Assembly (NCBI GenBank): GCA_958295515.1
Contig: CATQGW010000001.1
Span: 580,923-644,922, forward strand
Length of the DNA stretch: 64,000 nucleotides
Direction: 5' to 3'
Origin: an uncultured Dehalococcoidia bacterium
GTDB taxonomy: Bacteria > Chloroflexota > Dehalococcoidia > Bin125
Shown here: positions 13,198 to 31,008 of the stretch, in pieces
Numbering within the stretch: the stretch's first letter is position 1
Layout: the number at the start of each line of letters is the position of its first letter
Notes under the pieces: generated by a model
Told to the model about the DNA's origin: nothing
The model's input: only the letters and a program-made list of their open reading frames with translations
Databases searched by the model: none
Translations under genes and position numbers: made by a program

Positions 13198-13200
13198 CGA

Positions 13201-13686
13201 ATGTGCGCCATCGTAGACGCCGATAGTTCGGGAGAGATTGCCGCTGTGAACCCGTCAGCTGGCGCTCAAGCGTTCAAAGAGTGGATTGCAGGTGGTCAGT
13301 GTTGCTTGGTCATCGGCGGCAGCCGCCTGCGAAAAGAGCTTGGACGCGGCTTCACCGATCCCGAGCGTGCGAAGCAGACGACCGTCACGGAATGGATTTC
13401 GGGAGTTGCGCTCGCCGGGAAGCTGATCAGCGAAGATGACGCCGAGGTCGACGCCCGCGCTGATCAGATCGAGCAATCGGGATTGTGCGCGTCGAACGAC
13501 TTTCACATCATCGCGCTCGCTCAGGTCGCCGGCGCGCGGATGCTGTATTCCAGAGATGCAGAGTTGCATCAGGACTTCACGAATACCGCGCTTCTGTCCC
13601 AACCTTCCGGCAAGGTGTATCCACGAAACTTGAGCCTGTCGGCGAGCAAGCAGTGGCTCGCCCGCAATCGCAGGTTCTACAGCTGA
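13201..13686 (+). CDS. PIN-like domain protein (putative nuclease partner of the ATPase)
   Basis: 161 aa starting 4 bp after the ATPase stop. N-terminal AIVDADS (β1 with acidic residue). C-terminal SNDFHIIALAQVAGARMLYSRDAELHQDF resembles the PIN/VapC D-x-iaA-A-…-T-D-DF signature. Confidence 0.5.
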   Translation: MCAIVDADSSGEIAAVNPSAGAQAFKEWIAGGQCCLVIGGSRLRKELGRGFTDPERAKQTTVTEWISGVALAGKLISEDDAEVDARADQIEQSGLCASNDFHIIALAQVAGARMLYSRDAELHQDFTNTALLSQPSGKVYPRNLSLSASKQWLARNRRFYS

Positions 13687-15080
13687 CCGTCGCCGCCTAA
13701 CACCTCCGGACGCATCCGGCACCAATCCGTCGACTGCTCATACGCATGCGCCACCCGACACACCGTCGCCTCGTCGAAATGCCGACCACCGATCATCAAC
13801 CCAATCGGCAGACCATTCCGATCAAACCCGCACGGAATCGAAATCGCCGGAATCCCCGTCACATCATACGGAGCCGTCAGACGCGCCAACTCCGCGTCAT
13901 CGTCCCCCTCCTCGATCGTCGGCGCAGTGCGCGATGTCGTCGGCGACACCAACACATCCACCGTTTGCAGCACCTCCACCGTCTCATCGATGAACAGCCG
14001 ACGCAGCCGCTGATCATTGATGTAGTCCACCGCCGTCACCGCCAGCCCCGCCTCCACGCGCGGCAGAATATCGCCGTACTCCTCGCGCCGCTCACGCAGC
14101 CACTTCGCGTGATACGCCGCCGCCTCCGCGATAATCGTCATCCCCCGCCCGCGATCCGTCTGCAGCGGCAGCTCCACCTCCACGATCTCCGCACCCAGCC
14201 GCCGCAAATGATCCAGCGCCTCCTCGCAGTGCGACAGCACATCCTCCTCGCAGTTCTTCCACAGCATCTTGCGCGGAACCCCAACCCGCACGCCCTCAAC
14301 GCCTTCGCCCAGCATCCCCGTCGTATCGTCCACCGCCCGGTCCGCCGAGCCCGGATCGTGCGGATCGTAACCCGCGATCGTGTCCAGAAACAGCGCCGCA
14401 TCCTCCACCGTCCGCGCCAGCGGCCCCACGTGATCCAGCGTCCATGACAGCGGCAGCACCCCCGCCCGCGACACCCGCCCGTACGTTCCCATCAACCCCA
14501 CCACACCGCACAGCGACGCGGGAATCCGAATACTCCCGCCCGTATCGCTGCCAATCGCCCCCAGCGCCGAACCCACCGCCACCGCCGCCCCGCTGCCCCC
14601 GCTCGAACCGCCCGGCGAGCGCTCCGTATCCCACGGATTGCATACTGCCCCATAGTGCGGATTACGGCTCGTCGTGCCGAACGCAAACTCATGCAAGTTC
14701 AGCTTGCCCGGCAGCACCGCGCCCGCCTCTTGCAACTTCGTCCACACCGTCGCATCCCGCTCCGGCACCCGCTCGCGCAGAAATCCCGAACCCCCCGTCG
14801 TCGCGATCCCCGCCGTATCCACCAAGTCCTTCAGCCCAATCGGAATCCCGTGCAGCGGCCCTCGCTCGCGTCCATCGCGCAGCTCCTCATCCAGCCGCGC
14901 CGCCTGCTCCCGCGCCAACTCCGCCGTCACCGTGATGTAGGCGTTGAGCAGCGGCTCCGTCTCCTCCAGACGCTCCAGCACCGACTCCGTCAGCGCCGCG
15001 CAGGTCAGTGCGCCGCCCCGCAGCGCCGCACCCGCCTCCGCAATCGTCAGATCGTGCGGATGCCGTTCAAGCTCAGTCAT
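13677..15080 (-). CDS. amidase (amidase-signature family, GatA-like)
   Basis: GGSSGGSGAAVA amidase signature and a Ser-cisSer-Lys context. Start chosen at MTELERH (cat at 15078-15080). Confidence 0.85.
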   Translation of the reverse strand: MTELERHPHDLTIAEAGAALRGGALTCAALTESVLERLEETEPLLNAYITVTAELAREQAARLDEELRDGRERGPLHGIPIGLKDLVDTAGIATTGGSGFLRERVPERDATVWTKLQEAGAVLPGKLNLHEFAFGTTSRNPHYGAVCNPWDTERSPGGSSGGSGAAVAVGSALGAIGSDTGGSIRIPASLCGVVGLMGTYGRVSRAGVLPLSWTLDHVGPLARTVEDAALFLDTIAGYDPHDPGSADRAVDDTTGMLGEGVEGVRVGVPRKMLWKNCEEDVLSHCEEALDHLRRLGAEIVEVELPLQTDRGRGMTIIAEAAAYHAKWLRERREEYGDILPRVEAGLAVTAVDYINDQRLRRLFIDETVEVLQTVDVLVSPTTSRTAPTIEEGDDDAELARLTAPYDVTGIPAISIPCGFDRNGLPIGLMIGGRHFDEATVCRVAHAYEQSTDWCRMRPEVLGGDGQL

Positions 15081-15324
15081 CTGCGCCCCGCTCTCCGCGC
15101 GCCTCGCCCACATCGAAGCGCAGCCCGAACGCCGGCTCCGTCTCCCCCAAGTCGGGCAGCTCCGGGCGGTTCATCTCACTCCGCAGCGCCGCCGCCACGA
15201 CCGTCGCCGTTCGCTCCAGCTGCGCATATTTCGGCGACACCCCCAGCGCGTCCGCCGCCGCGCGCAGCGCATCCCGCAACGTATCCGTCTGAGCCATTGC
15301 CCCACTCCTCTCGCCGCGCGCCAA
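15073..15324 (-). CDS. small GatC/AtzG-like protein (DUF4089-like), translationally coupled to the amidase
   Basis: ~75-83 aa ORF whose TGA overlaps the amidase ATG (ATGA). Small soluble protein immediately upstream of an AS-family amidase, as for AtzG/GatC partners. Start ambiguous (15324 or 15297). Confidence 0.4.
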   Translation of the reverse strand: MARGERSGAMAQTDTLRDALRAAADALGVSPKYAQLERTATVVAAALRSEMNRPELPDLGETEPAFGLRFDVGEARGERGADD

Positions 15325-15432
15325 TTCTAGAGAGTGCCGAGCAGCCGCACACGCGGGCTATCCTGCCATCAGACAGTTCCACCAGACAGTCCCGGCGGGC
15401 ATGCCCGCCGAGACAGCCCGAAAGGCGAAACC

Positions 15433-16218
15433 ATGGCCGACGAAGTCCTCTTTGACGTCAACGAGCGGGTGGCCACCATCACCCTCAACCGCCCCGACAA
15501 ACTCAACGCCATTGACGCCGCGCTCGGCTCGCAGCTGATCGAGTCGCTCGTCGAAGTCCGCAACAACGACGACATCCGCGCCGCCGTGATCACCGGCGCC
15601 GGCCGCGCCTTCTGCGCTGGCGCCGACCTCACCCAGGGCGACGGCCCCGCCGCCTCCGCCGGACCCGCCGGACACTTCGAAACCTCGCAGCGCATCCGCT
15701 TCGACGAGTTCGACGCCAAAAAGCCCCTGATCGCCGCGATCAACGGACACGCCCTCGGCGGCGGCTTCGAAATCGCCCTGATCTGCGACCTGCGGATCGG
15801 CGCCGACAACGCCCGCGCGCGCCTCGGCCTGCCCGAAATCACCCTCGGCTTCTTCCCCCTCGCCGGCGGCCCCATGCGCCTCCCCCGCGCCATCCCCCAG
15901 GCCTACGCCAACGAAATGCTCTTCCTCGGACGCCGCCTCGACATGCAGACCGCCCTCCAGTGGGGCCTAATCTCCCGCCTCGTCCCGCCCGACGAGCTGC
16001 TCCCCACCGCCCAGGAAATGGCCGCCCAAATCGCCGGCTACGCCCCCATCGCCGTCCGCGCGCTCAAAGAACTCACCTACGCCCAGACCGACATGACGCT
16101 CGACCAGGCCAACCGCTTCGGCGCCTCCCTGCGCTGGATCGTCGGCCAAACCGCCGACTCCAAAGAAGGCCCCCGCGCCTTCGCCGAAGGTCGCCAACCC
16201 GAATTCAAAGGCGAGTAG
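15433..16218 (+). CDS. enoyl-CoA hydratase/isomerase (crotonase family)
   Basis: MADEVLFDVNERVATITLNRPDKLNA… with oxyanion-hole GAGRAFCAGADL. ATG at 15433. Confidence 0.85.
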   Translation: MADEVLFDVNERVATITLNRPDKLNAIDAALGSQLIESLVEVRNNDDIRAAVITGAGRAFCAGADLTQGDGPAASAGPAGHFETSQRIRFDEFDAKKPLIAAINGHALGGGFEIALICDLRIGADNARARLGLPEITLGFFPLAGGPMRLPRAIPQAYANEMLFLGRRLDMQTALQWGLISRLVPPDELLPTAQEMAAQIAGYAPIAVRALKELTYAQTDMTLDQANRFGASLRWIVGQTADSKEGPRAFAEGRQPEFKGE

Positions 16219-16222
16219 CGCA

Positions 16223-17413
16223 GTGCCCGCCGGCCTCCCCCTCAACGGCCTCTTCGTCCTCGACCTCACCCGCGCACGCGCCGGGCCCACCGCTACCCGC
16301 CAACTCGGCGACTGGGGCGCCGACGTGCTCAAAGTCGAAGCGCCCGCACCGCCCGGCTCCCCCGAAGGCGTCACCGGCGGACGCGAGTCCAGCGACTTCC
16401 TCAACCTGCACCGCAACAAACGCTCCCTCTCGCTCAACCTCAAAGAACCCGAAGCGCGCGACATCTTCCTCCGCCTCGCCGCCGACGCCGATGTCATCGT
16501 CGAAAACTACCGCCCCGACGTCAAATATCGGCTCGGCGTCGATTACGAAACCGTACGCGCAATCAACCCCCGCATCATCTACGGCAGCATCTCCGGCTTC
16601 GGGCAGGACGGACCATACGCAAAGCGCCCCGGCGTCGACCAGATCGCCCAGGGCTTGGGCGGCATCATGTCCGTCAACGGACTGCCCGGCGACGGCCCCG
16701 TGCGCGTCGGCATCCCCATCGCCGACCTCACCGCCGGCGGCTTCCTCGCCCAGGCCATCCTGCTCGCGCTCTACGAACGCGAACAGTCCGGCGAAGGCCA
16801 GTGGGTATACACCTCCCTGCTCGAAGCGCAGCTCGCCATGCTCGATCTACAGGCCACCCGCTGGCTGATCGACGGCGAAACACCCCCCCAGGCCGGCAAC
16901 GACCACCCCACCCTGATGCCCACCGGCGTCTACCAAACCGCCGACGGACACATCAACATCGCCGCCTCCGGCGGAGACATCTACGCCCGCCTCTGCCGCG
17001 CGCTCGACGCCCCCGAACTGATCGACCACCCCGACTACGCAACCTCCGCCCTGCGCTCCCGCAACCGCGCCGCGCTCAACGAAGAAATCGCCCGCCGCAC
17101 CCGCCGACGCTCCAGCGCCGAATGGATCGCCGCCCTCAACGACGCCGGCGTGCCCTGCGGACCGATCTACGACATCCCCGCCGCCTTCGCCGACCAACAG
17201 GTGCAACACCTCGCCATCGACCGCCCCGTCGCGCACCGCGAGCGCGGCGAAATCCGCGTCGTCGGCCAGCCCATCCACCTCCGGCGCACCCCGCAGCCCG
17301 AGCGCATGCGCCTGCCCACCCCACAACTCGGAGAACATACCGACGAAGTGCTCGCACAACTCGGTTACGACAACGACGCCATCGCCGACCTGCGCAAGCG
17401 CGGCGTAATCTGA
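16223..17413 (+). CDS. CoA transferase, family III (CaiB/BaiF)
   Basis: LNGLFVLDLTRARAGP…LGDWGADVLKVE N-terminal signature, ~396 aa. Confidence 0.85.
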   Translation: MPAGLPLNGLFVLDLTRARAGPTATRQLGDWGADVLKVEAPAPPGSPEGVTGGRESSDFLNLHRNKRSLSLNLKEPEARDIFLRLAADADVIVENYRPDVKYRLGVDYETVRAINPRIIYGSISGFGQDGPYAKRPGVDQIAQGLGGIMSVNGLPGDGPVRVGIPIADLTAGGFLAQAILLALYEREQSGEGQWVYTSLLEAQLAMLDLQATRWLIDGETPPQAGNDHPTLMPTGVYQTADGHINIAASGGDIYARLCRALDAPELIDHPDYATSALRSRNRAALNEEIARRTRRRSSAEWIAALNDAGVPCGPIYDIPAAFADQQVQHLAIDRPVAHRERGEIRVVGQPIHLRRTPQPERMRLPTPQLGEHTDEVLAQLGYDNDAIADLRKRGVI

Positions 17414-17423
17414 GGAGCATCGA

Positions 17424-18227
17424 ATGAACACCATCGAACTCGAAACCGAAAAAATGCTCGCCTGGAGCGAAGACGGCATCGGCTGGATGGTCTTCAACAA
17501 CCCCGAACGCCTCAACGCCATGGGCGTCGAAATGAACGCCGCCATCCCCACCATCCTGCACACCTTCCGCGACGACCCCGATGTGCGCGTCGTCGTCATG
17601 AAAGGCGCCGGCGAACGCGCCTTCGTCTCCGGCGCCGACATCTCCGAATTCGAATCGCGCCGCTCCGACCCTGAAACCATCAAACAGTACGACGAAATCG
17701 GCGCCGCCGCCGGTCGCGCCTACGGCGAACTCGACAAACCCCTGATCGCCATGATCCGCGGCTACTGCATGGGCGGCGGACTGCTCACCGCACTCCGCGC
17801 CGACCTCCGCATCGCCTCCGACAACTCCCAATTCGGCGTCCCCGCCGCACGCCTCGGCCTCGGCTACGGCTACGGCGGCGTCAAAACCCTCACCGACCTC
17901 GTCGGGCGCGCCGCCGCCCAGGAAATACTCATCACCGGCAAGCGCTTCCCCGCCGCCGACGCCATGCGCTGGGGCCTCGTCAACCGCGTCACCACCGTCG
18001 AAAACCTCGAAGCCGCCGTGCTCGAGCTCGCCGCCACCATCGCCGCCAACGCCCCCCTCACCATCCGCGCCATCCGCTACGCCATCGACCAGCTCGCCAA
18101 AGACCCCAATTCCCGCAACCTCCCCCACCTAGAAACTCTGGTCAACGCCTGCTTCAACAGCCAGGACTACAAAGAAGGCCGCACCGCCTTCATGCAAAAA
18201 CGCCCCCCCAACTTCACCGGCCGCTAG
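17424..18227 (+). CDS. enoyl-CoA hydratase/isomerase (crotonase family)
   Basis: …MVFNNPERLNAM… and GAGERAFVSGADI, 267 aa. Confidence 0.85.
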   Translation: MNTIELETEKMLAWSEDGIGWMVFNNPERLNAMGVEMNAAIPTILHTFRDDPDVRVVVMKGAGERAFVSGADISEFESRRSDPETIKQYDEIGAAAGRAYGELDKPLIAMIRGYCMGGGLLTALRADLRIASDNSQFGVPAARLGLGYGYGGVKTLTDLVGRAAAQEILITGKRFPAADAMRWGLVNRVTTVENLEAAVLELAATIAANAPLTIRAIRYAIDQLAKDPNSRNLPHLETLVNACFNSQDYKEGRTAFMQKRPPNFTGR

Positions 18228-18238
18228 AGGACGATCTG

Positions 18239-20236
18239 ATGACTCACCCTCCGCAATGGCGATTCCGTAAAATGTCACCCGCCGAGATCAACCAGGATCC
18301 GGTGCAGGGAGAGTTCTTCACCTCCACGTCTGATCTCGCTGAGCGCCTTGTCCGAGAGTCGATACAAAACTCGCTCGACGCTGCTCTCGGCGATGGTCCG
18401 GTCCGAGTTCGGTTCGCCTTCAGCGGTGCGGAACAGGCTTTGCCCGCTGAGCAAGCCGCACGCTACCTCGATGGCTTGAAGGCGCATCTCGAGGCAGTCG
18501 CGTTGTCGGATGCCGACAAGCCGTCAGTAGATGTCGATCACGAAGACGCTGCGGTTTATGACGCCTACGACTTGGTCGACCAACGGGTGCCAATGACCTA
18601 TTTGGTCGTCGAAGACTTGGGAACAAAGGGACTGACCGGCGACATCAGGAGCAACACCGAGTTCGAGAAAGGAAACCGCTTTTGGGGGTTCTTCCGCAGT
18701 GTCGGCATCTCACCCAACGTCGGCGGGACAGGCGGCTCGTGGGGCCTCGGCAAGTGGGTCTTCCCCGATGTCTCGCAGATCAATGCCTATCTCGGCATCA
18801 CCCGCCGTTCGGATGAGCAACGTGACCTGCTCATGGGCATGGCGATCCTCAAGACGCACCAAATCGACAACAAGAAGTACCCTCCCTACGGTCAGTTCGC
18901 GATTCGCTCTGATGAACAGGACGCCCGCTGGCTTCCATTGCCGATCGACTCCGACGAGGATCCTGACAACATCCTCGACACTGCGATCGACGATTTCCGC
19001 CTCCAGCGGCGCGACAGCTCTGGACTCTCAGTGGTCATCCCTTGGCCAAAAGAAGAACTGAACGCCAACGCGACCGTTCGCGCTGTATTGACGCAGTACT
19101 TCCTGCCGATTGTGTACGGCGATCTTGAAGTCGAGGTCGTCGCCGACGGCGAGACACAGCGAGTTAATCGTGAGTCAATCGTCGATGCGGCGCTCTGTAT
19201 CGACATATCGGAGCGCGACGACGAGTCTGCTCAGTCTTTGGTCAAAGCGATCGACCTTGCGTGCTGGGCAAGAGGTGAGGACGAGGAATCGCTGATTGAC
19301 GTCAAAGCCACGACGAGCCGCGACATTCTGGCAGGACAGGACATCGAATCACTGAGAGAACGCTTCGATCGCGGCGACCGTCTCGGTTTTCGCTTGTCGA
19401 CGAACGTGACTGACCGGAAGACAGGCGAGCCCGTAGTCAACACTTTCCGCGTCTATGTCGAGCAGGACGAGGATTTGACCCACGGCCACGACTATTTCGT
19501 GCGCGGCTACCTCCGCATACCTCACATGGATCACATCGGCTCGTTCCGCGCGCGAGCACTCGTGCTGGTTGATCGAGAGTCGAAGCTGGGCGATCTGCTG
19601 CGGGATGCCGAAGGTCCGGCTCACGTCTCGTGGGATCCTCACGCCGAGCGTCTCAAGAAGCGTTGGATCGGTGGATACGAACGTGTCCAGCAAGTTCGTC
19701 GCGCTGCTCTGCTGTTGCTCGGACCGCTCGCCGAAGTGCCGCGTGAGCGCCTCAAAAACCTACTCGCCGACCTCTTTCCCGCACCGTTGGGCGGAGGCGG
19801 CAATGGCCCACACCCGCCACCACCGCCGCCACCACCGCCACCACCGCCACCTGTAGTCAATCCCATCTCCATCAGTGAACTGAAGGATGGGTTTCGTATA
19901 CGCTCTGATTCGTCGAACCCTGCATCGCAGGCACTCGCTGGCACGAGTTGGCGTGTCGCGTTCGCGTACGATGTAGCGCGCGGCGGGCAGCGTGCCGCTT
20001 TCAACAGCTTTCGACAGGGCGTGAAGCAGGGCTCGCCCGACTTCAGCCTTTTCCGAGGCGCGCTCAGTATCACGTGTGAGGGATGCCTATACAAGATCAG
20101 GTCGGAGAACGAAATTGAGATCACAGTCACGAGGAACGACTTCCATCTCGGCGTACGCGGTCTTGATGCACGGGACGTGATCGTTGACCTACACCAACGA
20201 TCCGACGACGACGACACAGAGGATGATGAAGAATGA
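18239..20236 (+). CDS. GHKL (Bergerat-fold, HATPase_c/MORC-like) ATPase with C-terminal domain and poly-proline linker
   Basis: N-box ESIQNSLDAA, G1 box VEDLGTKGLTGD, G2-like GGTGGSWGLGKW. 665 aa. 13-Pro run. Acidic C-terminus. Lower GC than neighbours. First gene of a 3-gene overlapping operon. Confidence 0.7.
   Translation: MTHPPQWRFRKMSPAEINQDPVQGEFFTSTSDLAERLVRESIQNSLDAALGDGPVRVRFAFSGAEQALPAEQAARYLDGLKAHLEAVALSDADKPSVDVDHEDAAVYDAYDLVDQRVPMTYLVVEDLGTKGLTGDIRSNTEFEKGNRFWGFFRSVGISPNVGGTGGSWGLGKWVFPDVSQINAYLGITRRSDEQRDLLMGMAILKTHQIDNKKYPPYGQFAIRSDEQDARWLPLPIDSDEDPDNILDTAIDDFRLQRRDSSGLSVVIPWPKEELNANATVRAVLTQYFLPIVYGDLEVEVVADGETQRVNRESIVDAALCIDISERDDESAQSLVKAIDLACWARGEDEESLIDVKATTSRDILAGQDIESLRERFDRGDRLGFRLSTNVTDRKTGEPVVNTFRVYVEQDEDLTHGHDYFVRGYLRIPHMDHIGSFRARALVLVDRESKLGDLLRDAEGPAHVSWDPHAERLKKRWIGGYERVQQVRRAALLLLGPLAEVPRERLKNLLADLFPAPLGGGGNGPHPPPPPPPPPPPPPVVNPISISELKDGFRIRSDSSNPASQALAGTSWRVAFAYDVARGGQRAAFNSFRQGVKQGSPDFSLFRGALSITCEGCLYKIRSENEIEITVTRNDFHLGVRGLDARDVIVDLHQRSDDDDTEDDEE
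19814..19852 (+). repeat. CCR trinucleotide (poly-proline-encoding) tract inside GHKL ATPase gene
   Basis: 13 consecutive Pro codons (ccg/cca alternating, final cct), encoding HPPPPPPPPPPPPP between the two halves of the GHKL protein. Confidence 0.8.
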
Positions 20237-21033
20237 TCCGTCGATTTAACCGCACGGGCCGTAGGACGATTGCGCGTCAGCATGCTCAGGTCACACTGCG
20301 CAAACTGAACCCCGAGCAGACTTACTTTGAAATCGCGCTTGATTTGAATTCCTATGGTTTTCCGAAGGACGCGAAGGTTCGCGTCGAAGCTTGGCGTTCG
20401 AATGCCGTACAGCGCTGGGAATTCGGGATCGTTGACGACATCAACCCGCCGACGCGAGGCAATCGCGTCCTGCGCGACGTGCCTGAGACCGCCGCATTCC
20501 GCGTTGCCATTGTGGCGCCAGACGATTCGGGTTTGCTGTTCGGCTTGAGTGGCGACCTTCGTCCACGGCGAGAACTGACCAACGACGGCTCAGAGCCGAT
20601 AGCCGAATCGCTGCTTCACGTCGAGATCGCTAGCGATCTCGGGCAAGAGGTGTGGCGTCTCGATTTCGGAGACGACGAGCTGCCGGTGCTCCAGCTCAAT
20701 GGCTCAATCTCGGGCATCGCGCAGATTGTGGAGCACGACCCGACGTTTCGGTCCCTCGTCATTCCGGAGATTTTCAGAAGCATCTTGCAGCGAGCAATTC
20801 TCGTTACCCGGATCGACCCAGATGATCCTGACTCGAACGCTTGGACCGACTGGCTTGCTTTGGCTAAGAAGCAAGCCCCAAAGGCAGATGTGCCCACACT
20901 GACAGATTTGGCGGACACCGGCGAGCGAGACGCGGCCTTTTCATGGATCGAGATGGTGGTTGGCCGATTCGCGGCTCAAAGGGGCTTTGATGCTGCCACG
21001 ACGTACAGTAAGGCTATGGAGGCAGGGCGATGA
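20233..21033 (+). CDS. hypothetical protein (operon partner 2 of GHKL ATPase)
   Basis: 266-aa ORF. ATG overlaps the upstream stop (ATGA). No motif recognised by eye. Confidence 0.6.
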   Translation: MIRRFNRTGRRTIARQHAQVTLRKLNPEQTYFEIALDLNSYGFPKDAKVRVEAWRSNAVQRWEFGIVDDINPPTRGNRVLRDVPETAAFRVAIVAPDDSGLLFGLSGDLRPRRELTNDGSEPIAESLLHVEIASDLGQEVWRLDFGDDELPVLQLNGSISGIAQIVEHDPTFRSLVIPEIFRSILQRAILVTRIDPDDPDSNAWTDWLALAKKQAPKADVPTLTDLADTGERDAAFSWIEMVVGRFAAQRGFDAATTYSKAMEAGR

Positions 21034-21746
21034 CATACGCCAGAGCACTTACGACAGACGGCATTCGACGAGCTCAGGAGTTCGTCAGGGCGTTGGGCAG
21101 TGACCCGGCCATGCCGCTCACCCCGCCGGATGACATTCTGTTCGATGCTCGATACTCGCGGGAGATCGAGCGAGCACCGAGAGTCGAACATCGCAGTTTC
21201 ACCACACGACGCGAAGCTGCCGAATACTTGGTTTCTCTTTCGCCCCCTCTCGATCAGCGCTCCGTAGATGACTGGCCATTTTGGTCGTGGTTGGGCCTGT
21301 GGCACCTGCCGGACATATTGCACACCGATGAGCGGCGCACTCGCATGTCGAGCGAAGAAGAGACGTTCGTTGTCGACCGAATGGACGGCCGGTCGCGACA
21401 AAGCAGGTACCGGAACTACCTGTGGACATCGTGGCGTCTTTACCAAGCGTTCGGCGAAGAGGCAGCATATCTCCTCGATCTCGACATCATGGAGATCGGA
21501 CAAATCACGCGACGAATCATTAACTCGCCGCGAATCTTCAACTCCGTTGGTGTCGTTCAACTAATTCTACGGCTCTATACGCGGGAGAAAAGGGCGAAGC
21601 GCGGCCGCAGAAACCGCCCTGGTGGGCTGGATCACCTCTTTCGCGTCCTCCCACAGCTCGAACTGACGCACGATGTCTATGGCATGTCGCCCGACGCGCT
21701 GCTGCGCATCTTGCCACCAGAGATCCAAAAGTGGGATGAGCGCTGA
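21030..21746 (+). CDS. hypothetical protein (operon partner 3 of GHKL ATPase)
   Basis: 238-aa ORF. ATG overlaps the upstream stop (ATGA). Basic C-terminal region (REKRAKRGRRNRPGG). Confidence 0.6.
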   Translation: MTYARALTTDGIRRAQEFVRALGSDPAMPLTPPDDILFDARYSREIERAPRVEHRSFTTRREAAEYLVSLSPPLDQRSVDDWPFWSWLGLWHLPDILHTDERRTRMSSEEETFVVDRMDGRSRQSRYRNYLWTSWRLYQAFGEEAAYLLDLDIMEIGQITRRIINSPRIFNSVGVVQLILRLYTREKRAKRGRRNRPGGLDHLFRVLPQLELTHDVYGMSPDALLRILPPEIQKWDER

Positions 21747-21798
21747 CCCGCAGTCGCCTGAGACTGGCTACCATACCCACACACACAAGGAGGCACCC

Positions 21799-22905
21799 AT
21801 GCCCGTCGAATTCATCGGCATGATCGGCGTCAAGCCGTCCGAAGACAACGCCGCCGTCCACATCATCGGTGGCGGCATCTCCCGCGACTACCTCTGCGAC
21901 TTCACCCGCGCCCACGAGCAGGCCGGCTTCGACCAGGTGCTCGTCGGCTATACCTCCGCCGCCGCCGACGGCCTGCACGTCGCTCAGGCCGCCGCCGCCT
22001 GCACCGAGCGCATCAAATTCCTCATCGCCCACCGCCCCGGCTTCGTCCAGCCCACCCTCGCCGCACGCAAATTCGCCACCCTCGACTACTTCACCGGCGG
22101 GCGCGTCTCCGTCCACGTCATCTCCGGCGGACACGACACCGAGCAGCGCCGCGACGGCGACTGGGCCGACCACGACGCCCGCTACCGCCGCACCGACGAA
22201 TACCTCACCGTCATGCGCCGCACCCTCGCCGGCGGCGAACCATTCGACTTCCACGGCGAGTTCTACAACGTCGAAGGCGCCAACGCCGACGTCTGGCCCG
22301 TCCAGCACGGCGGCATCCCCATCTACTTCGGCGGCGCCTCCGACATCGCCTTCGAAACCGGCGTCAAGCACTGCGACGTCTACATGATGTGGGGCGAGCC
22401 CCGCGCCTCCATCGCCCGCACCATCGAGCGCGTCCGCGAAATGGCCGCCCGCCACAACCGCAGCCCCCGCCTCAGCGTCTCCTTCCGCCCCATCCTCGCC
22501 GCCACCGAAGAAGCCGCCTGGGAAAAAGCCGAGCGCTACCTCGCCAAAGTCAGCACCCTGTCCAAGCAGCCGCTCGACTTCCGCCCCCAGTCGCGCGGCT
22601 CCCAGCGCCTGCTCGAATGGGCCGCGCAGGGCGACATCCACGACGAGCGGCTCTGGATGCCCATCGCCGCCGCCACCGGCGCCGCAGGCAACACCTCCGC
22701 CCTCGTCGGCACCCCCGACCAGGTCGCCGAAGCCCTGCTCGCCTACTACGACCTCGGCGTCAGCACCATCCTCATCCGCGGCTTCGAGCCCCTGCCCGAC
22801 GCCGCCGACTACGGACGCGAACTCATCCCCACCGTCAAAGCCGAAGTCGCCAAACGCGACGCCGCCGCCGAGCAGCCCGCCCGCCAGACCGCGGCAGCCC
22901 GATGA
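21799..22905 (+). CDS. LLM-class flavin-dependent oxidoreductase (luciferase-like monooxygenase)
   Basis: ATG at 21799 after AAGGAGG. TIM-barrel LLM signatures: …DQVLVGYTSAAADG…, …FLIAHRPGF…, YFGGAS. GC-rich native codon usage. Confidence 0.8.
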   Translation: MPVEFIGMIGVKPSEDNAAVHIIGGGISRDYLCDFTRAHEQAGFDQVLVGYTSAAADGLHVAQAAAACTERIKFLIAHRPGFVQPTLAARKFATLDYFTGGRVSVHVISGGHDTEQRRDGDWADHDARYRRTDEYLTVMRRTLAGGEPFDFHGEFYNVEGANADVWPVQHGGIPIYFGGASDIAFETGVKHCDVYMMWGEPRASIARTIERVREMAARHNRSPRLSVSFRPILAATEEAAWEKAERYLAKVSTLSKQPLDFRPQSRGSQRLLEWAAQGDIHDERLWMPIAAATGAAGNTSALVGTPDQVAEALLAYYDLGVSTILIRGFEPLPDAADYGRELIPTVKAEVAKRDAAAEQPARQTAAAR

Positions 22906-24050
22906 GCGCCGCCGCCGACGCCGAGCGCCGCATCCGCGCCTTCGAGGAGATGGGCTGGCATCGCACCGGCTGGGAAGCCGACAACCAGGCAGCCGACTGG
23001 CTAATCGCCGAGCTCCAGACCGCCGGCATCGAAGCCCGCGCGCAACCCTTCCGCGCCCCCCGCTGGCACTGGAACAAGGCGGAAGTGCGGGTCGCGGGTC
23101 ACAGGATCATCGGTGAACCCATGAGCGACGGAGGTCCCGCGCCTGGAATGGGCGTAGTGGCCCCGCTTCTCCGCGAACCTCGCCACAACACCATGTCCAT
23201 CATCGTGTGGCAGCCCACGATCGACGATCCGCGTCGTCTCGGTCCTGAAATCTATGACCACCTTGACCATCTGGAGGCGCAGGGTGCGCAAGGCGTAGTG
23301 CTTTTGATGGACGACGAGGACGGATACGGCATCCTGCGCAACGCCGAACGGCCGTGGGATCCCATTCGCCTGCCGGTGCTCCAAATCGCACCGAAAGAGG
23401 CAGGCCCGCTCCTGGACAATGAGGGGGAAACCGCCGGGCTTGTGATCACAGGCCGCCGCGAAGAAGTCCAGGCGCTCAACGTCCTCGCCGAAATCCCCGG
23501 CGCCGACCTCAACGCCGCGCCCGTCACCCTCATGACGCCCAAATCCGGCTGGTTCACCTGCGCCGCCGAGCGCGGCGGCGGCATCGCCGTCTGGCTCGCC
23601 GTCGCCGAACGGATCGCCGCCCAGCGCCCCCGCCGCACTCTCCAACTCGTCGCCAGCAGCGGCCACGAACTGCACCACCTCGGCCTCGATGCCTACCTCG
23701 AATCGCTCGGCGACGCCGCCTCCAAAGTCTCCGCCTGGATCCACCTCGGCGCCGCAATCGGCGCAAAACGCGGCACCCCCAGCCTCGCCGCCTCCGACGA
23801 CGAACTGATGACCATTGCCCAATCCGCCCTCTCCGCCTCCGGCATCGAGCGCGACCCATTCCCCGTCGGACGCTCCGGCTACGGCGAAGCCCGCAACATC
23901 GCCGAAATCGGCGGCCGCTACATCTCCCTACTAGGCGGCCACCCCTACTTCCACAGCCCCCAGGACACCTTCGACAACGCCGTAGACCTCAACCTACTCA
24001 CCCGCCACATCAACGCCGTAGAAACAATGACGCGAGAACTGCTGGCCTGA
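22902..24050 (+). CDS. hypothetical protein, possible M28-like peptidase/hydrolase
   Basis: ATG overlaps the LLM stop (ATGA). Weak resemblance to the M28 metal-binding region (…AERGGGIAVWLAVAERIA…SSGHELHHLG). Function uncertain. Confidence 0.45.
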   Translation: MSAAADAERRIRAFEEMGWHRTGWEADNQAADWLIAELQTAGIEARAQPFRAPRWHWNKAEVRVAGHRIIGEPMSDGGPAPGMGVVAPLLREPRHNTMSIIVWQPTIDDPRRLGPEIYDHLDHLEAQGAQGVVLLMDDEDGYGILRNAERPWDPIRLPVLQIAPKEAGPLLDNEGETAGLVITGRREEVQALNVLAEIPGADLNAAPVTLMTPKSGWFTCAAERGGGIAVWLAVAERIAAQRPRRTLQLVASSGHELHHLGLDAYLESLGDAASKVSAWIHLGAAIGAKRGTPSLAASDDELMTIAQSALSASGIERDPFPVGRSGYGEARNIAEIGGRYISLLGGHPYFHSPQDTFDNAVDLNLLTRHINAVETMTRELLA

Positions 24051-24111: not shown

Positions 24112-26397
24112 GTGAAGAACGCGCCAAAGCCCGAAAATCTGTCGCTGCAGAGCCTGCTCTCGCGCCTCAGCGAGGGACGCTTCGTGATCCCCGACTTCCA
24201 GCGGGAATTCGAGTGGGAGCCCAAAGACATCCTCGAGCTGATGCGCTCCCTCTTCCTCGATTACTACATCGGAAGCTTGCTCCTCTGGCGCGGGCGCAAC
24301 GAGACGTTCGCGGCGCTGGCGTGTAAGCCGCTCGCGGTCTTCGCCGGCGACAACGGAGGCAGTCCGGAGCACATCGTGCTTGACGGGCAGCAGCGCCTCT
24401 CGGCGATGTACTACGCATTCATGGCGCCGTCGGTCCCCGCACCAAACCGGAAGGTCCGGTACTTGTACTTCATCCGCATCGATAAATGGGCGGACGACGA
24501 ACCTGACGAGGCTTTCGTCTACGACTGGACGCGCCGTGGCACAAACCTACTCGACGATCGCGAAGAGCAATTTGCCCGTCAGATGCTCCCACTCGCAACG
24601 ATCGGCAATGCCGGTCGGCGTGGGGTTTGGGACTGGTTCCGCGATTACGAGACATTCTGGGAGGAGAAGCGTGGCGCTGCCGATTCGACAGGTCGCACAG
24701 CAGAGCGCGGTCAAGCTCAGCGGTGCATCGAGCAAGGTAGCGAGTTTGCCGATCACCTTGATGAGATGCTGCGCGAATACCAAATCTCCTACATTGAGCT
24801 TGATCAAGAGCTCGAGATCGATAAGGTCTGCGACACCTTCACACGGATCAACAGCCGCGGCATCCGACTCGACATATTCGACCTGATGAACGCTCTCCTG
24901 CGACCGAAAGACCTCCGACTCAAGGACATGTGGCGAGAGGTTGCGCCTGATCTGGAGTTCATCAGCTCAAGTCGGTCCGATGTCTACGTACTGCAGGTGA
25001 TGTCGATCCTCGCGCAGAACTACTGCTCACCGAAGTACCTGTACCATCTCCTCCCCGGCGAGAAGCGCCGCATTCGCAAGCCGGATGGATCCAGCGCCGA
25101 TCAAGTGCTGGTGCCCGATGCCGAAGACTTTGAGCGCCGTTGGTTGGAAGCCGTGGCGATCATCAAGAGCGGCGTCGCGCGGCTGAGCCATCCTCAAGAC
25201 TTCGGAGCGATCTCCTCAGCCCTCCTCCCGTACGCCTCGATCCTCCCAGCGTTTTGCTCGGTGCTGCACATCGCAAATTCTGCGCCCGACGCTGAGCGAC
25301 TCACGGCTGCACGCAAGGTTCGCGATTGGTACTGGGCGAGCGTGTTCACGAATCGATACTCCGGGGCGGTTGAGTCCACGGCGGCGCGCGATGTCCTTGA
25401 CGTAAGGCAATGGATCAACAACGACGATGCCGTACCAGATGTGATCGCTGCACTTCCCGAACGCATGCGGACACTGGACCTACGAAGCGAAACGCGCCCT
25501 GCGGCATCGGTGTATAAAGGAGTGCTCAACCTGATCATTATGAACGGCGCCCGCGATTGGGCGTCCGACGCGCCACCGCAGCCGGACGACATCGATTCCT
25601 ATCACATCATTCCCAAGTCGTGGGGAAGAGCGAATCGTCTCGGCAAACGGATCGACACCGTTCTGAACCGCGTTCCCCTGTCCTCGGAAACCAATCGGGA
25701 CATCATCGGCAAGCAGCTCCCAAATCAGTACCTACGCGAGTGGATCGACAGAACAGGAGAAGCGTCCGTCCGCGAGACGCTGCGAACTCATCTGATCTCG
25801 GACACGGCATTCGACATTCTGTGCCGCGACCCGTTCGAGAAAGACGACTTCGAAGCATTTCTGTCGGAACGTCAACGAACCATCCAACAGGCGATTGAAG
25901 TGCTGTTGATCAAGGGGCGGCTCGATCTGACTCCGGACCTGAGGGAAATGGATAGGCGCGTTGAGGTCGTTGAGCTCGAACTGCGAAAGCTTGTTGTGGC
26001 TACTCTCAACAGCGACTCACAAAGAGTGCCTCAGAGCGTGCGCGTGAAATGGCAGCCGCGAATCGAAACGATCAAGCGCAAGCAGCCAGGACTCGCAGCC
26101 GACGCATTCGACACCCTGCGAGTGCAGCTGGAGTACGCCGACCTGAGCGAGCTTGGCGAGATCATTCTCAACAAGGCGCTGTGGCTAGACTTCCAACCGG
26201 TGTTCAACGCGAAGCCGCTCGTGCAGAGCCGCTTCGCACAGCTCGGCGAGCTGCGCAATGCGATCCGCCACACCCGCACCGTGACGCCCGTCGTCCAAAA
26301 AGACGGCGAAGCGGCACTGCTGTGGTTCGACCAGGCGCTGGGCATGGCGGGGCTTCGGAGGTCGGACGGAGAGATTCCCGCTCGGGGGCGGGAATGA
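24112..26397 (+). CDS. DUF262 (ParB-like NTPase) + DUF1524 (HNH-like) protein, GmrSD/SspE-like type IV restriction-type enzyme
   Basis: N-terminal IPDFQREFEWE and DGQQRLSAMY (DUF262 hallmark). C-terminal …DDIDSYHIIPKSW… (His-Me/DUF1524-like). 761 aa. Reduced GC. GTG start. Confidence 0.8.
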   Translation: MKNAPKPENLSLQSLLSRLSEGRFVIPDFQREFEWEPKDILELMRSLFLDYYIGSLLLWRGRNETFAALACKPLAVFAGDNGGSPEHIVLDGQQRLSAMYYAFMAPSVPAPNRKVRYLYFIRIDKWADDEPDEAFVYDWTRRGTNLLDDREEQFARQMLPLATIGNAGRRGVWDWFRDYETFWEEKRGAADSTGRTAERGQAQRCIEQGSEFADHLDEMLREYQISYIELDQELEIDKVCDTFTRINSRGIRLDIFDLMNALLRPKDLRLKDMWREVAPDLEFISSSRSDVYVLQVMSILAQNYCSPKYLYHLLPGEKRRIRKPDGSSADQVLVPDAEDFERRWLEAVAIIKSGVARLSHPQDFGAISSALLPYASILPAFCSVLHIANSAPDAERLTAARKVRDWYWASVFTNRYSGAVESTAARDVLDVRQWINNDDAVPDVIAALPERMRTLDLRSETRPAASVYKGVLNLIIMNGARDWASDAPPQPDDIDSYHIIPKSWGRANRLGKRIDTVLNRVPLSSETNRDIIGKQLPNQYLREWIDRTGEASVRETLRTHLISDTAFDILCRDPFEKDDFEAFLSERQRTIQQAIEVLLIKGRLDLTPDLREMDRRVEVVELELRKLVVATLNSDSQRVPQSVRVKWQPRIETIKRKQPGLAADAFDTLRVQLEYADLSELGEIILNKALWLDFQPVFNAKPLVQSRFAQLGELRNAIRHTRTVTPVVQKDGEAALLWFDQALGMAGLRRSDGEIPARGRE

Positions 26398-26440
26398 CGA
26401 GGAAGACCGCCCTTTCCAGCAGGCGCGATACGCTCCCCCT

Positions 26441-27393: not shown

Positions 27394-27675
27394 ATGAACC
27401 CCGAGCCGCGCATCCTGCTCTACCGTCGCGCCGAGTGCCACGCCTGCGACCGCGCCGCCGAGGCCATCCGCTCGATCGCCGCCGCCCTCAACCTGCCCTG
27501 GCAAACGCGCTGCATCGATGGCGACGAAGACCTCGAGGCGCGTCACGGCCGCCGCATCCCCGTCGTCTCCCTACAACGCGGCGACCAAGAACTCGAGCTG
27601 GCCGCCGAGCAGGTCAACGCCGCCGCGCTGGCCCGCCGCCTGCGCGCGGCCCTGACTACGCCTCGCCCAGATTGA
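27394..27675 (+). CDS. glutaredoxin-like (thioredoxin-fold) protein
   Basis: 93 aa with CHAC (CxxC) after a β1 strand ([15 protein letters not shown]). Confidence 0.6.
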
Positions 27676-28384
27676 TCGCGTGCAGCCCGCACTCCTTCTG
27701 CGTCGCCTCTTCCCACCACCAGCGCCCTGCCCGCTCGTGCTCGCCCGGATGCGTCGCCCGCGTACACGGCTCGCAGCCGATCGACTTAAATCCGCGGTCG
27801 TGCAGCGGGTTGTAGGGCACGCCGTAGGTCTGGATGTAATCCCAAACCTGCTGCGAGCGAAAGTTGGCCAAAGGGTTGAACTTCACCCGCATCCCGTCGT
27901 GCTGCACGACCGGCAGCTCCGCGCGCGTGCCCGGGCTCTGATCCTTGCGCTGCCCCGTCGCGAACGCCGCCACGCCCTCCAGCGCGCGCGCCAGCGGCTC
28001 AACCTTGCGAATGCCGCAGCACTCCCCGTGCCCGTCGCGCCGGAAGGAGAACAGCCCCTTCTCGCGCACCAGCGCCTCCACCGCCTCCGCCTGCGGGCTG
28101 AACGCCTCGATCGTGATCCCGTAGCGCTCGCGCACCGTCTCGATGTACGCCAACGTCTCGCCGTGCAAGCGCCCCGTGTCGAGCGAGAACACGCGGAATC
28201 CGTCGGGACCGACCGCGCGCTGCGCCATATCGATCAGCACCGCATCCTCCGCCCCGCTGAACGAGATGCTCAGTCCGGGAAAGCGATCCAGCGCCTCCGC
28301 GACGATGTCCGCGGGATGCGCGCGATCCAGCCGCACAGCGGCCTCCGCGATGTCGTATCCGCTGATCAACAGTTGGTGTGACAT
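27656..28384 (-). CDS. cysH: phosphoadenosine phosphosulfate/adenylylsulfate reductase
   Basis: …[15 protein letters not shown]…, the ECG(I/L)H motif ([11 protein letters not shown]… KECGLH), and a C-terminal CEPC. Start at MSHQLL (28384). Confidence 0.85.
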
Positions 28385-28490
28385 GCGACACTCACAAAGT
28401 CTGGGCGAAATCGGACCATTTCGGTTAGGATTGTCAGCATCGTAGCGCCGAGCCCCGCCTGGGGGCAGAGGAGCGGCTGGTGCAGCCCGC

Positions 28491-28925
28491 ATGATGAAGC
28501 TGTCGAGCAAGAGCGACTACGGCATCCGCGCGCTGGTCGACCTCGCCCAGCACGCCGGCGCCGGGCCGATCCCCAGCAGCGAGATCGCGCTGCGCCAGGC
28601 GATCCCCGCCTCGCTCGTCGGCCAGGTGCTCGGACGCCTGCGCACCGCCGGCTTCATCCGCTCCACGCGCGGCGCGCAGGGCGGACACCAACTCGCCGTC
28701 CCCGCCGACGCCATCCGCCTCGATGTCGTCGTCCAGTCCCTCGAAGGCCCCATCTCACCCGGCGCCTGCCTCGACGAAGCGCCGATCGAGCGCTGTACCG
28801 GGGCCGCCGCACAAGTCCGCCTCTGGGCGGATGTGCAGGCGGCCATCCTGGAGGTGCTCAACGGACGCACCGTCGAGGACCTCGCCCAACAACAGGCCGC
28901 GGCCGGCAGCCGCTACCAAATCTGA
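28491..28925 (+). CDS. Rrf2-family transcriptional regulator (IscR/CymR-like)
   Basis: [18 protein letters not shown]… is the canonical Rrf2 wHTH N-terminus. Confidence 0.8.
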
Positions 28926-28960
28926 CCGATGACCCGAGCAACGAAATCCCCGAGACGCCC

Positions 28961-29893
28961 GTGACCCTCCAGCGACCGCCCGTCGCCGACACCGTGCTCG
29001 ACCTGATCGGCGCGACCCCGATGCTGCGCCTGCGCCGCATCGCCCCGCCCGACGCCGCCGAAATCGTCGCCAAGCTCGAATCGCTCAATCCCGGCGGCTC
29101 GGTCAAAGACCGCATCGCGCGCGCGATGATCGAAGACGCCGAGTGCAGCGGCGCACTCAAACCCGGCGACACCATCGTCGAGCCCACCTCCGGCAACACC
29201 GGCGTCGGCCTCGCGCTCGTCGCCGCCGTCAAGGGCTACCGCCTGGTCCTAACCATGCCCGAAGACATGAGCCGCGAACGCCGCCGCCTGCTCGAACGCT
29301 TCGGCGCGGAAGTCCTGCTCACCCCCGCCATCGAGGGCATGACCGGCGCAGTCTTCGCCGCCGAGGAACTCTCCCGCGAACCCAACCACTTCATGCCCCA
29401 GCAGTTCCTCAACCTCTCCAACCCCGAAATCCACCGCCGCACCACCGCGCCCGAAATCTGGGCCGCGCTCGACGGCAAACTCGACGCCTTCGTGACCGGC
29501 GTGGGTACGGGCGGTACGATCACGGGCGTCGGCGAATGGCTGCGCGAGCGCATCCCCGACCTGCGAATCGTCGCCGTCGAACCCCTGCGCTCGCCCGTCC
29601 TCCAGGGCGGACGCTTCGCCGTTCATCAAATCCAGGGCATCGGCGCATCCTTCGTGCCCGGTGTGCTGAACCGCGAGGTCTACGACGAGGTGATCGGCGT
29701 GAGCGACGAAGACGCGATCGCAATGACCGCGCGTCTCACCCGCGAGGAAGGCGTGCTCGCTGGCATCTCCTCCGGCGCCAACGTCCACGCCGCCGTCGAA
29801 ATCGCTCGCCGACTCGGCCCCGGCCGGCGCGTCGTGACCACCATCTGCGACACCGGCGAGCGCTATCTGAGCATGCCCTTCGAGGGCGAATGA
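28961..29893 (+). CDS. cysK: cysteine synthase (O-acetylserine sulfhydrylase, PLP-dependent)
   Basis: PLP-lysine motif NPGGSVKDRIA, then TSGNTGVGLA and GTGGTITGVG. Confidence 0.85.
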   Translation: MTLQRPPVADTVLDLIGATPMLRLRRIAPPDAAEIVAKLESLNPGGSVKDRIARAMIEDAECSGALKPGDTIVEPTSGNTGVGLALVAAVKGYRLVLTMPEDMSRERRRLLERFGAEVLLTPAIEGMTGAVFAAEELSREPNHFMPQQFLNLSNPEIHRRTTAPEIWAALDGKLDAFVTGVGTGGTITGVGEWLRERIPDLRIVAVEPLRSPVLQGGRFAVHQIQGIGASFVPGVLNREVYDEVIGVSDEDAIAMTARLTREEGVLAGISSGANVHAAVEIARRLGPGRRVVTTICDTGERYLSMPFEGE

Positions 29894-29904
29894 GGGAACT
29901 ACCC

Positions 29905-31008
29905 ATGAGCGTCCGCGTCTACATCCCCACCCCCTTCCGCAAGATCACCGGCGACCGCACCTTCGTCGAGGCCGACGGCAGCGACGTCAACGGCGTCCTG
30001 CGCGATCTCGAACAGCGCTTCCCCGGCTTCGGCGAAATGGTCTTCAACGGCGAACAAGAGCTGCTGGAGCACGTCAACGTCTACCTCAACAGCCAGGAAA
30101 TTCGGGCGCTGCAGGGCGCGAGCACGTTGGTCAGCGACGGCGACGAGGTGGCCGTGATCCCCGCCCTCGCCGGCGGCGCGGCCATGACCCCCGAGATGGT
30201 CGAGCGCTACTCCCGCCACCTGATCATGGACCAGGTCGGGCCGGTCGGACAGCGCAAGCTGATCGACGGCAAAGTGCTCGCCGTCGGCGCGGGCGGCCTC
30301 GGCTCGCCTGTGCTCGTCTACCTCGCCGCCGCCGGCGTCGGCACCATCGGCATCGTCGATTTCGATGTCGTCGACCGCTCCAACCTCCAGCGCCAGATCA
30401 TCCACGGCAGCAGCGACCTCGGCCGCCCCAAGGTCGAGTCGGCGCGAGACCGCATCGCCGACATGAACCCCAATGTCGTCGTGCAAACCCACACCCAGCC
30501 GCTGACCTCCGAAAATGCGATGGAGATCATCCCCCAATACGACGTGATCATCAACGGCGCCGACAACTTCGCCACCCGCTACCTGGTCAACGACGCCGCC
30601 TTCCTCTCCGAAAAAATCCTCGTCGATGGCAGCATCTTCCTCTTCGAAGGGCAGGTCACGACATTCTTCCCCGGCCAGGGCTGCTACCGCTGCCTCTACC
30701 CCAGCCCGCCGCCGCCCGGCATGGTGCCCTCCTGCGCCGAGGCCGGCGTGCTCGGCGTGCTGCCCGGCACGATCGGCGCGATCCAGGCGACCGAAGCGAT
30801 CAAGGTGCTGCTCGAACAGGGCGATCCGCTCAAAAACCGCCTGCTGCTCTACGACGCCCTGGCGATGGACTTCCGCACGGTCAAAATCCGCCGCGATCCG
30901 GCCTGCCCGCTCTGCGGCGACGCCCCCAGCGTGACCGAGCTGATCGACTACGAAGAGTTCTGCGGCTCCCCCTTCCACGAGGGACCCGTCGCCGCCGCCG
31001 GCGGCTAA
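29905..31008 (+). CDS. MoaD/ThiS-like ubiquitin-fold domain fused to MoeB/ThiF-type E1 adenylyltransferase
   Basis: N-terminal ~90 aa end in …VAVIPALAGG, then run directly into the E1 Rossmann LAVGAGGLGSPV…D.D.V..SNL. C-terminal CxxC…CPLC zinc motif. Confidence 0.75.
   Translation: MSVRVYIPTPFRKITGDRTFVEADGSDVNGVLRDLEQRFPGFGEMVFNGEQELLEHVNVYLNSQEIRALQGASTLVSDGDEVAVIPALAGGAAMTPEMVERYSRHLIMDQVGPVGQRKLIDGKVLAVGAGGLGSPVLVYLAAAGVGTIGIVDFDVVDRSNLQRQIIHGSSDLGRPKVESARDRIADMNPNVVVQTHTQPLTSENAMEIIPQYDVIINGADNFATRYLVNDAAFLSEKILVDGSIFLFEGQVTTFFPGQGCYRCLYPSPPPPGMVPSCAEAGVLGVLPGTIGAIQATEAIKVLLEQGDPLKNRLLLYDALAMDFRTVKIRRDPACPLCGDAPSVTELIDYEEFCGSPFHEGPVAAAGG

Follow-up and report, generated by a model that had tools for sequence, protein, structure and literature searches.

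Among single-protein type IV-like defence enzymes, GmrSD, BrxU and SspE serve as the references and are described as two-domain proteins that target DNA. Here we compare them with the gene at positions 24112 to 26397 of a 64,000-nucleotide stretch of DNA from an uncultured Dehalococcoidia bacterium (the whole stretch is called the window below). BrxU (PDB 7P9K/7P9M) resembles the product of this gene in having an N-terminal DUF262 domain with the QR and DGQQR motifs, a long helical linker and a His-Me finger of the form xHIxP...N...N, at an identity of about 15%. BrxU is associated with BREX, whereas the window gene stands alone, and its finger begins with DH where the window family has HH and the window copy YH. 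Furthermore, BrxU is 587 amino acids (aa) long and lacks a HEPN domain, whereas the window protein adds a C-terminal module of about 150 aa, for which a protein of BrxU's length has no space.

GmrSD (Eco94GmrSD/EcoCTGmrSD) and HEC-06 are likewise single-polypeptide defence proteins that join DUF262 to a His-Me nuclease, and a preprint reports that HEC-06 defence needs DGQQR and the acidic and His residues of its HNH motif (bioRxiv 10.1101/2024.01.29.577857). Their similarity to the window protein is limited to DUF262; a HEPN domain is described for neither, and the target of GmrSD is glucosylated hydroxymethylcytosine (glc-hmC). SspE shares a DUF262 nucleoside triphosphatase (NTPase) coupled to a His-Me nicking domain, according to PMC10952713. 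It relies on phosphorothioation by sspABCD, and a HEPN domain is not described for it. PMC10952713 also presents PD-T4-2 (Vassallo et al. 2022) as an experimentally active anti-phage system with DUF262 and a HEPN domain (PF18735), and reports no DUF1524 domain in it; the PD-T4-2 profile was absent among the 15 PADLOC matches of the window protein at E ≤ 0.01. The 2013 HEPN census (Anantharaman et al., PMC3710099) lists a fusion of ParB(DUF262), HNH and a Swt1-like HEPN domain, marked 'active', with VNG7073 as its example. By domain listing, this purely computational entry is the same three-domain combination as the window protein. The combination was thus already listed computationally, and we found no experimental study of it.

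We read the window gene as encoding a stand-alone, single-polypeptide nuclease against phages that belongs to the GmrSD/BrxU lineage and has acquired a third, HEPN-type module, and we give this reading a probability of roughly 0.7. It rests on the domains and motifs present, a fold like that of BrxU, the location of homologues in defence islands and purifying selection, all reported below. A very large subfamily would thereby put a probable RNase module onto a GmrSD-type scaffold and, if the HEPN arm is active, DNA restriction and RNA-level or abortive-infection defence would be joined in one chain. The label 'DUF262 domain-containing protein' conceals two further predicted nuclease modules.

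Domain content of the protein

The open reading frame (ORF) is complete (Table 1), and its GTG start is sound because homologues in a 28-member alignment (A1) open with the same MKNAPKP. DUF262 is the sole Pfam family matched on the full protein (PF03235, E = 1e-29, 104.5 bits; cut-off 33.2), and an NCBIfam search with the full protein and C-terminal fragments gave no match. The translation contains FVIPDFQREFEWEPKD and VLDGQQRLS. Residues Q30, R31 and D91 to R95 are invariant in the family, as is VLDGQQR throughout alignment A1. Besides the DUF262 motifs, A1 shows two further conserved blocks, one at aa 495 to 529 (D-D/S-H-H-I-V/I-P-K-x-W ... I-L-N-R-x-P-L ... T-N-R) and one at aa 714 to 722 (L-R-N-x-I-R-H-S-R).

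At E ≤ 1e-5, a search for relatives returned 2,759 homologues. Of the best 120, most are 740 to 750 aa long and nearly all cover 97 to 98% of the query; the closest allele (P0001) is 90% identical. The family comprises thousands of sequences, and members from Chloroflexota, Actinomycetota, Alphaproteobacteria and Parcubacteria share about 55% identity.

The AlphaFold2 (AF2) model of the full-length protein has a predicted local distance difference test score (pLDDT) of 82. With this model Foldseek returned BrxU (7p9k_A) as the sole significant match (E = 1.2e-10, probability 1.00, 651 to 664 columns), at a template modelling (TM) score of just 0.30 to 0.40, perhaps because the model arranges the domains differently with respect to each other. 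By sequence, the match to BrxU 7p9k (E = 9e-7) spans aa 12 to 261, that is, the DUF262 part only. Of the PADLOC profiles, HEC-05 and HEC-06 match the N terminus.

An SspE-like phosphorothioate sensor that depends on a distant sspABCD or dnd locus would share the broad DUF262 and His-Me architecture, as set out in PMC10952713, and the window covers just 64 kb of the genome in which such a locus could lie. The PADLOC SspE profile does no better than E = 0.0076 (12.6 bits), and this on the N-terminal aa 19 to 99 alone. No ssp or dnd genes were seen among the window genes checked, nor were any obvious from the Pfam annotation of the neighbourhoods of five homologues from other lineages. Moreover, the nearby PAPS-reductase-like gene (PAPS, 3'-phosphoadenosine 5'-phosphosulfate) lies in a high-GC cluster, and its only PADLOC match is to BrxP, through a shared fold. 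We regard an SspE-like sensor as very improbable.

A preliminary description of this gene had reported a 761-aa protein with the DUF262 motifs IPDFQREFEWE and DGQQR and a C-terminal His-Me region, had assigned it to type IV enzymes of the GmrSD, BrxU and SspE kind, and had seen no sspABCD or dnd genes. The ORF and its motifs are as described, the motifs being family-invariant, and the statement on ssp and dnd genes agrees with ours. In the assignment, the likeness to GmrSD and BrxU is borne out by the Foldseek match to BrxU and by defence-island contexts, and the likeness to SspE is not (profile E = 0.0076). The His-Me motif exists (D495, H498, N519 and N528), but it lies at aa 495 to 532, in the middle of the protein. 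The two-domain architecture was right as to DUF262 and a His-Me nuclease and missed the third, C-terminal module with its RNxxxH motif.

The finger motif reads D495-S-Y497-H498-I-I-P ... L-N519-R ... T-N528-R in the window copy. In the AF2 model, strands at 495 to 498 and 520 to 523 followed by a helix at 525 to 532 are predicted to form a beta-beta-alpha metal finger. A profile of aa 430 to 600 aligns to the Cas9 HNH domain (6o56, E = 0.03), with the DH, N and N of Cas9 in register with H497/H498, N519 and N528 of the family profile. Pfam matches on individual members were all weak (AHH on 8 of 14, GmrSD_C on 3 of 14, HNH on 1 of 14). On a 557-aa Thermus plasmid homologue, HNH_4 is matched at gathering score exactly where the window motif aligns. 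The motif at this position is DHIYP in BrxU and EHICP in HEC-06, as given in the preprint (bioRxiv 10.1101/2024.01.29.577857). For DUF1524 (PF07510), precomputed annotation shows the family on none of the 120 best homologues, and direct searches of family members gave E of about 0.12 at best, on 3 of 14. We prefer to describe the predicted nuclease as a mid-protein HNH/AHH-like finger that the DUF1524 profile does not recognise.

The C-terminal module is confidently all-helical when modelled alone (AF2, pLDDT 88.8), and a PADLOC candidate profile, PDC-M34B, matches aa 619 to 725 (E = 5.7e-7). RNxxxH is present in all but one of 120 family members. The exception, P0092 (804 aa), leaves the alignment shortly before RNxxxH and continues into an unrelated tail; it looks like a frameshift allele or an assembly error that removed the HEPN motif.

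We searched a library clustered at 50% identity with a profile of the module and obtained 1,042 cluster representatives at E ≤ 1e-3. The module is C-terminal on unrelated scaffolds: a BrxL-type ATPase, a helicase_C and Mrr_cat protein, a reverse transcriptase, a protein kinase with Schlafen AlbA_2, a dynamin-like GTPase, and a protein with Mrr_N and DUF262. Nearly all of 56 long copies on other architectures keep L-R-N-x-x-x-H, and in an alignment of 40 sequences (A4) every copy has N716, while R715 and H720 each show conservation of 90% or more. When 40 diverse copies were searched against Pfam, the four commonest families were all HEPN: HEPN_Swt1 (10 copies, best E = 9.5e-5), HEPN_SAV2148 (8), HEPN_RiboL-PSP (7) and Abi_2 (5). 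HEPN_LA2681 and HEPN_Apea were each matched once, and there was no recurring rival family. The unit of about 135 aa behaves as a promiscuous cassette (fusion examples are P0252, P0253, P0267, P0284, P0300 and P0332), and most of the cassette fusion proteins are without HEPN annotation in Pfam. The cassette could therefore help to annotate effectors elsewhere, since it sits on at least six other defence scaffolds.

Relatives without the module are found on plasmids; they are 22 to 32% identical and align just to about aa 1 to 600. Two of them were examined, of 601 aa (Haladaptatus) and 557 aa (Thermus), and both end about where the HEPN module begins. Because these two-domain relatives stop near its start, the HEPN unit appears to be an added module. 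In a phage collection, the only relatives were distant two-domain or DUF262-only proteins.

Several results weigh against our reading of a GmrSD/BrxU-type nuclease with a gained HEPN-type module. Every HEPN match in Pfam on the relatives falls under the gathering score, and the window's own C-terminal sequence matches no HEPN profile in Pfam. With the C-terminal model, Foldseek found nothing significant in the PDB and BFVD (no match at E < 0.6), its best HEPN match being Csm6 (5yjc_B, E = 3, TM score 0.38). The DUF1524 domain proposed in the preliminary description finds no profile match at E ≤ 10, whether the full protein or sub-fragments of it are searched. For the window copy in particular, the substitution H497Y could weaken or disable DNA cleavage. 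Finally, we found no biochemical or phage study of any family member; the target, perhaps modified DNA, and the RNase activity are inferred. In addition, profile searches of the PDB that used the C-terminal alignments (A2 and A4) yielded chance coiled-coil matches only. A homologue search with the C-terminal profile brought up nothing but truncated family members and no bridge to annotated HEPN families; that bridge came through the clustered library. Because the Pfam matches are under gathering score, the window sequence itself has none and Foldseek gives no confirmation, we rate the assignment of the module to the Swt1/Abi2-type HEPN domains as probable, with good confidence, and not as proven.

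The same sub-threshold matches, together with the BrxU-like fold and the DUF262 and HNH motifs, would suit a plain type IV enzyme with the two domains of GmrSD and BrxU, whose C-terminal module is merely a dimerisation or regulatory appendage without catalysis. However, R715, N716 and H720 are near-invariant both in the family and on unrelated proteins, and a purely structural helix bundle fits such strong conservation poorly. Moreover, two-domain relatives do without the module. We consider the plain enzyme unlikely.

A HEPN domain normally requires a dimer to build its active site. If the module is of this type, the parts could work together as follows. By analogy with BrxU, GmrSD and SspE, binding and hydrolysis of nucleoside triphosphates by DUF262 probably controls the oligomeric (dimer) state or the conformation of the protein (PMC10952713). 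The NTPase cycle would thereby allow the HNH finger to cleave foreign DNA, probably with modified bases. The HEPN domains would pair in the dimer and probably cleave RNA, which would provide a second effector arm at the RNA level or through abortive infection.

A substitution beside the catalytic histidine

The catalytic His and both Asn that the preliminary description expected of the nuclease are present in the window copy; the adjacent, otherwise invariant His is replaced by Tyr497. All of the 120 closest homologues have His in front of the catalytic His, and Tyr in the window copy is unique among the 121 sequences. We take this position, from general knowledge of HNH enzymes, to be a metal-ligand site beside the catalytic His that helps to hold the metal ion. 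The aligned residue is Asp in the Thermus homologue and also in BrxU, whose motif reads DHIYP (bioRxiv 10.1101/2024.01.29.577857).

The substitution is the sole sign of decay that would speak for a compromised allele, with its DNase inactivated by H497Y and the gene heading for loss. However, the ORF is at full length, and of 223 columns with conservation of at least 97% the window copy deviates at only 4, within the range of 0 to 9 seen in other members. All residues of the DUF262 and HEPN motifs are intact, and the ratio of nonsynonymous to synonymous divergence (dN/dS) is about 0.17 on lineage pairs. A decaying allele is thus decidedly unlikely.

Within the reading of a nuclease with a gained HEPN-type module, DNA cleavage by the window copy may be weakened by Y497 while the NTPase and HEPN motifs remain intact. 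A more far-reaching version of that reading would make the protein a self-contained dual-effector immune protein, in which sensing of modified DNA by DUF262 triggers both an HNH DNase and a HEPN RNase, the HEPN arm serving as an abortive-infection back-up and as an exchangeable module; the H497Y allele would in that case represent a natural separation-of-function variant that defends with the RNase arm alone. We offer this version tentatively and consider it, taken as a whole, rather unlikely.

Genomic slot and evolution of the gene

The gene forms a lower-GC islet. Its GC content is 0.600 and its GC at third codon positions (GC3) 0.733, compared with 0.702 and 0.918 for the upstream luciferase-like gene and 0.694 and 0.902 for lgt, and in sliding windows the GC content is 0.57 to 0.62 over the gene and 0.66 to 0.72 on both sides. 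Pfam identifies the immediate neighbours as an M28-like peptidase gene (PF04389, E = 1e-5) and lgt (PF01790, E = 1e-48). The islet and its place between a peptidase-like gene and lgt had both been noted in the preliminary description, and both stand.

The closest genomes are Dehalococcoidia metagenome-assembled genomes, and the block of luciferase-like, M28-like and DUF262 genes is syntenic in all four genomes. Variable segments flank this block on both sides. Upstream, the window segment 18239 to 21746 is replaced by other genes in the related metagenome-assembled genome L010. Downstream, L010 carries 9.6 kb between the DUF262 gene and lgt (12229 to 21814) that are missing from the window, where the gap is 43 bp (26398 to 26440). 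The 9.6-kb insert holds CoA-transferase, SDR, lactamase_B and ResB genes and a fusion of an N6_N4 methyltransferase with Mrr.

Protein identity to the related genomes is 92 to 93% for the luciferase-like protein and 87% for Lgt, and 66 to 74% for the DUF262 protein. Between the window and L010 or L011, synonymous divergence (dS) amounts to 0.15 in the luciferase-like gene and reaches about 1.25 in the DUF262 gene (about 8-fold). The dN/dS of the DUF262 gene is 0.17 to 0.20 against three syntenic orthologues. These results show that the islet is a conserved slot with highly divergent alleles under purifying selection. Because a conserved slot carries such divergent alleles, allele replacement by recombination or horizontal gene transfer is a better fit than straightforward vertical descent.

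In other lineages the homologues lie next to different defence genes. An Acidimicrobiales homologue adjoins a type I restriction-modification system with Vsr, Dcm and NaeI. A Roseiflexus homologue adjoins DarT and macro-domain genes (DarTG-like, as read from Pfam matches) and a PLD-SNF2 helicase/Eco57I-type system, and in a third context a giant helicase-nuclease and an integrase stand beside the homologue. No partner gene is common to these lineages, which argues for a stand-alone defence gene.

Composition and context also bear on a ParB-like housekeeping protein with a role in partition or in the nucleoid, a role that the membership of DUF262 in the ParB/Srx fold would allow. However, GmrSD_N is the only Pfam family found, and it is fused to HNH and HEPN modules. 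In addition, the gene has a foreign base composition and about 8 times the synonymous divergence of the adjacent core gene, its neighbours are a peptidase gene and lgt, its homologues lie in defence islands, and two-domain relatives are carried on plasmids. Architecture, composition and context together effectively refute a ParB housekeeping role, which the preliminary description had named as something that would refute its own reading.

Table 1. Positions of the gene, its predicted modules and motifs, and the peptidase gene before it, in window coordinates.
Feature	Position	Strand	Remarks
ORF of the three-module DUF262-HNH-HEPN protein	24112..26397	+	complete, 761 aa, GTG start, TGA stop
DUF262/GmrSD_N ParB-like NTPase domain (aa 13-263)	24148..24900	+	Pfam PF03235, E 1e-29
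QR motif IPDFQREFEW	24187-24216	+	
DGQQR motif	24382-24396	+	
Linker, mostly alpha-helical (aa 264-494), as in BrxU/GmrSD	24901..25593	+	AF2 model, pLDDT mostly 80-95
Predicted HNH/His-Me finger motif (aa 495-532)	25594..25707	+	beta-beta-alpha element
Y497, codon TAT	25600..25602	+	single C-to-T change from CAT
All-helical module (aa ~608-745), probably Swt1/Abi2-clade HEPN	25933..26346	+	RNxxxH conservation, PADLOC PDC-M34B, recurrence on other scaffolds
RNAIRH motif (R715, N716, H720)	26254-26271	+	
C-terminal tail, 16 residues	26347..26394	+	not in homologues (alignment); predicted disordered, pLDDT <50 for aa 747-761
M28-like peptidase gene	22902-24050	+	ATG overlaps TGA of luciferase-like gene (ATGA)

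Flanking genes and minor features

A search for mobility signs around the islet revealed no tRNA genes in the window and no meaningful flanking direct or inverted repeats, and a search for a sigma-70-like promoter or a convincing terminator at the DUF262 gene found none. A perfect 8-bp hairpin at 26374 to 26395 (ATTCCCGC / GCGGGAAT, with a 6-nucleotide loop) overlaps the stop codon of the gene. It falls inside the 16-residue tail missing from homologues, and the T-run that could follow it is absent.

In each of the four Dehalococcoidia genomes, the DUF262 gene is preceded by the M28-like gene. The M28-like gene evolves much faster than the luciferase-like gene (identity 62 to 66% against 92 to 93%, dN 0.23 to 0.29, dS about 0.55 against 0.15). 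At the Roseiflexus homologue (L007 and L008), an unrelated peptidase of the M42/M28 type lies just upstream on the opposite strand. The presence of a peptidase next to the DUF262 gene may reflect coincidence, a recombination gradient or a functional link.

Past lgt, a high-GC cluster at 27659 to 31005 contains the PAPS-reductase-like gene (on the minus strand), a small gene, an apparent cysteine synthase gene, a small ORF and a ThiF/MoeB-like E1 gene. These names come from reading the sequence only, and the PADLOC matches to BrxP and to E1-E2 apparently arise from shared folds. We considered the PAPS-reductase-like and ThiF/E1-like genes as dnd/ssp-like candidates and rejected them, given only fold-level matches to BrxP and E1. 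The cluster looks like housekeeping sulfur metabolism and could be mistaken for dnd/ssp-like or ubiquitin-like defence genes.

The upstream variable segment is itself a second low-GC islet (18239 to 21746, plus strand, GC 0.58 to 0.59) with three co-directional genes for proteins of 665, 266 and 238 aa. The 665-aa protein has a GHKL-like motif (ESIQNSLDA), a run of 13 prolines and a match to the PADLOC candidate PDC-M33A (E = 7e-14). This islet has the appearance of a defence hot spot occupied by an uncharacterised system of three genes. The three genes occupy the same slot in the Dehalococcoidia metagenome-assembled genome L001/L009, at 39 to 46% identity, where the third gene is annotated DUF6339, and in L002/L010 the slot contains a methyltransferase gene, an HTH-M78 peptidase gene and two other genes.

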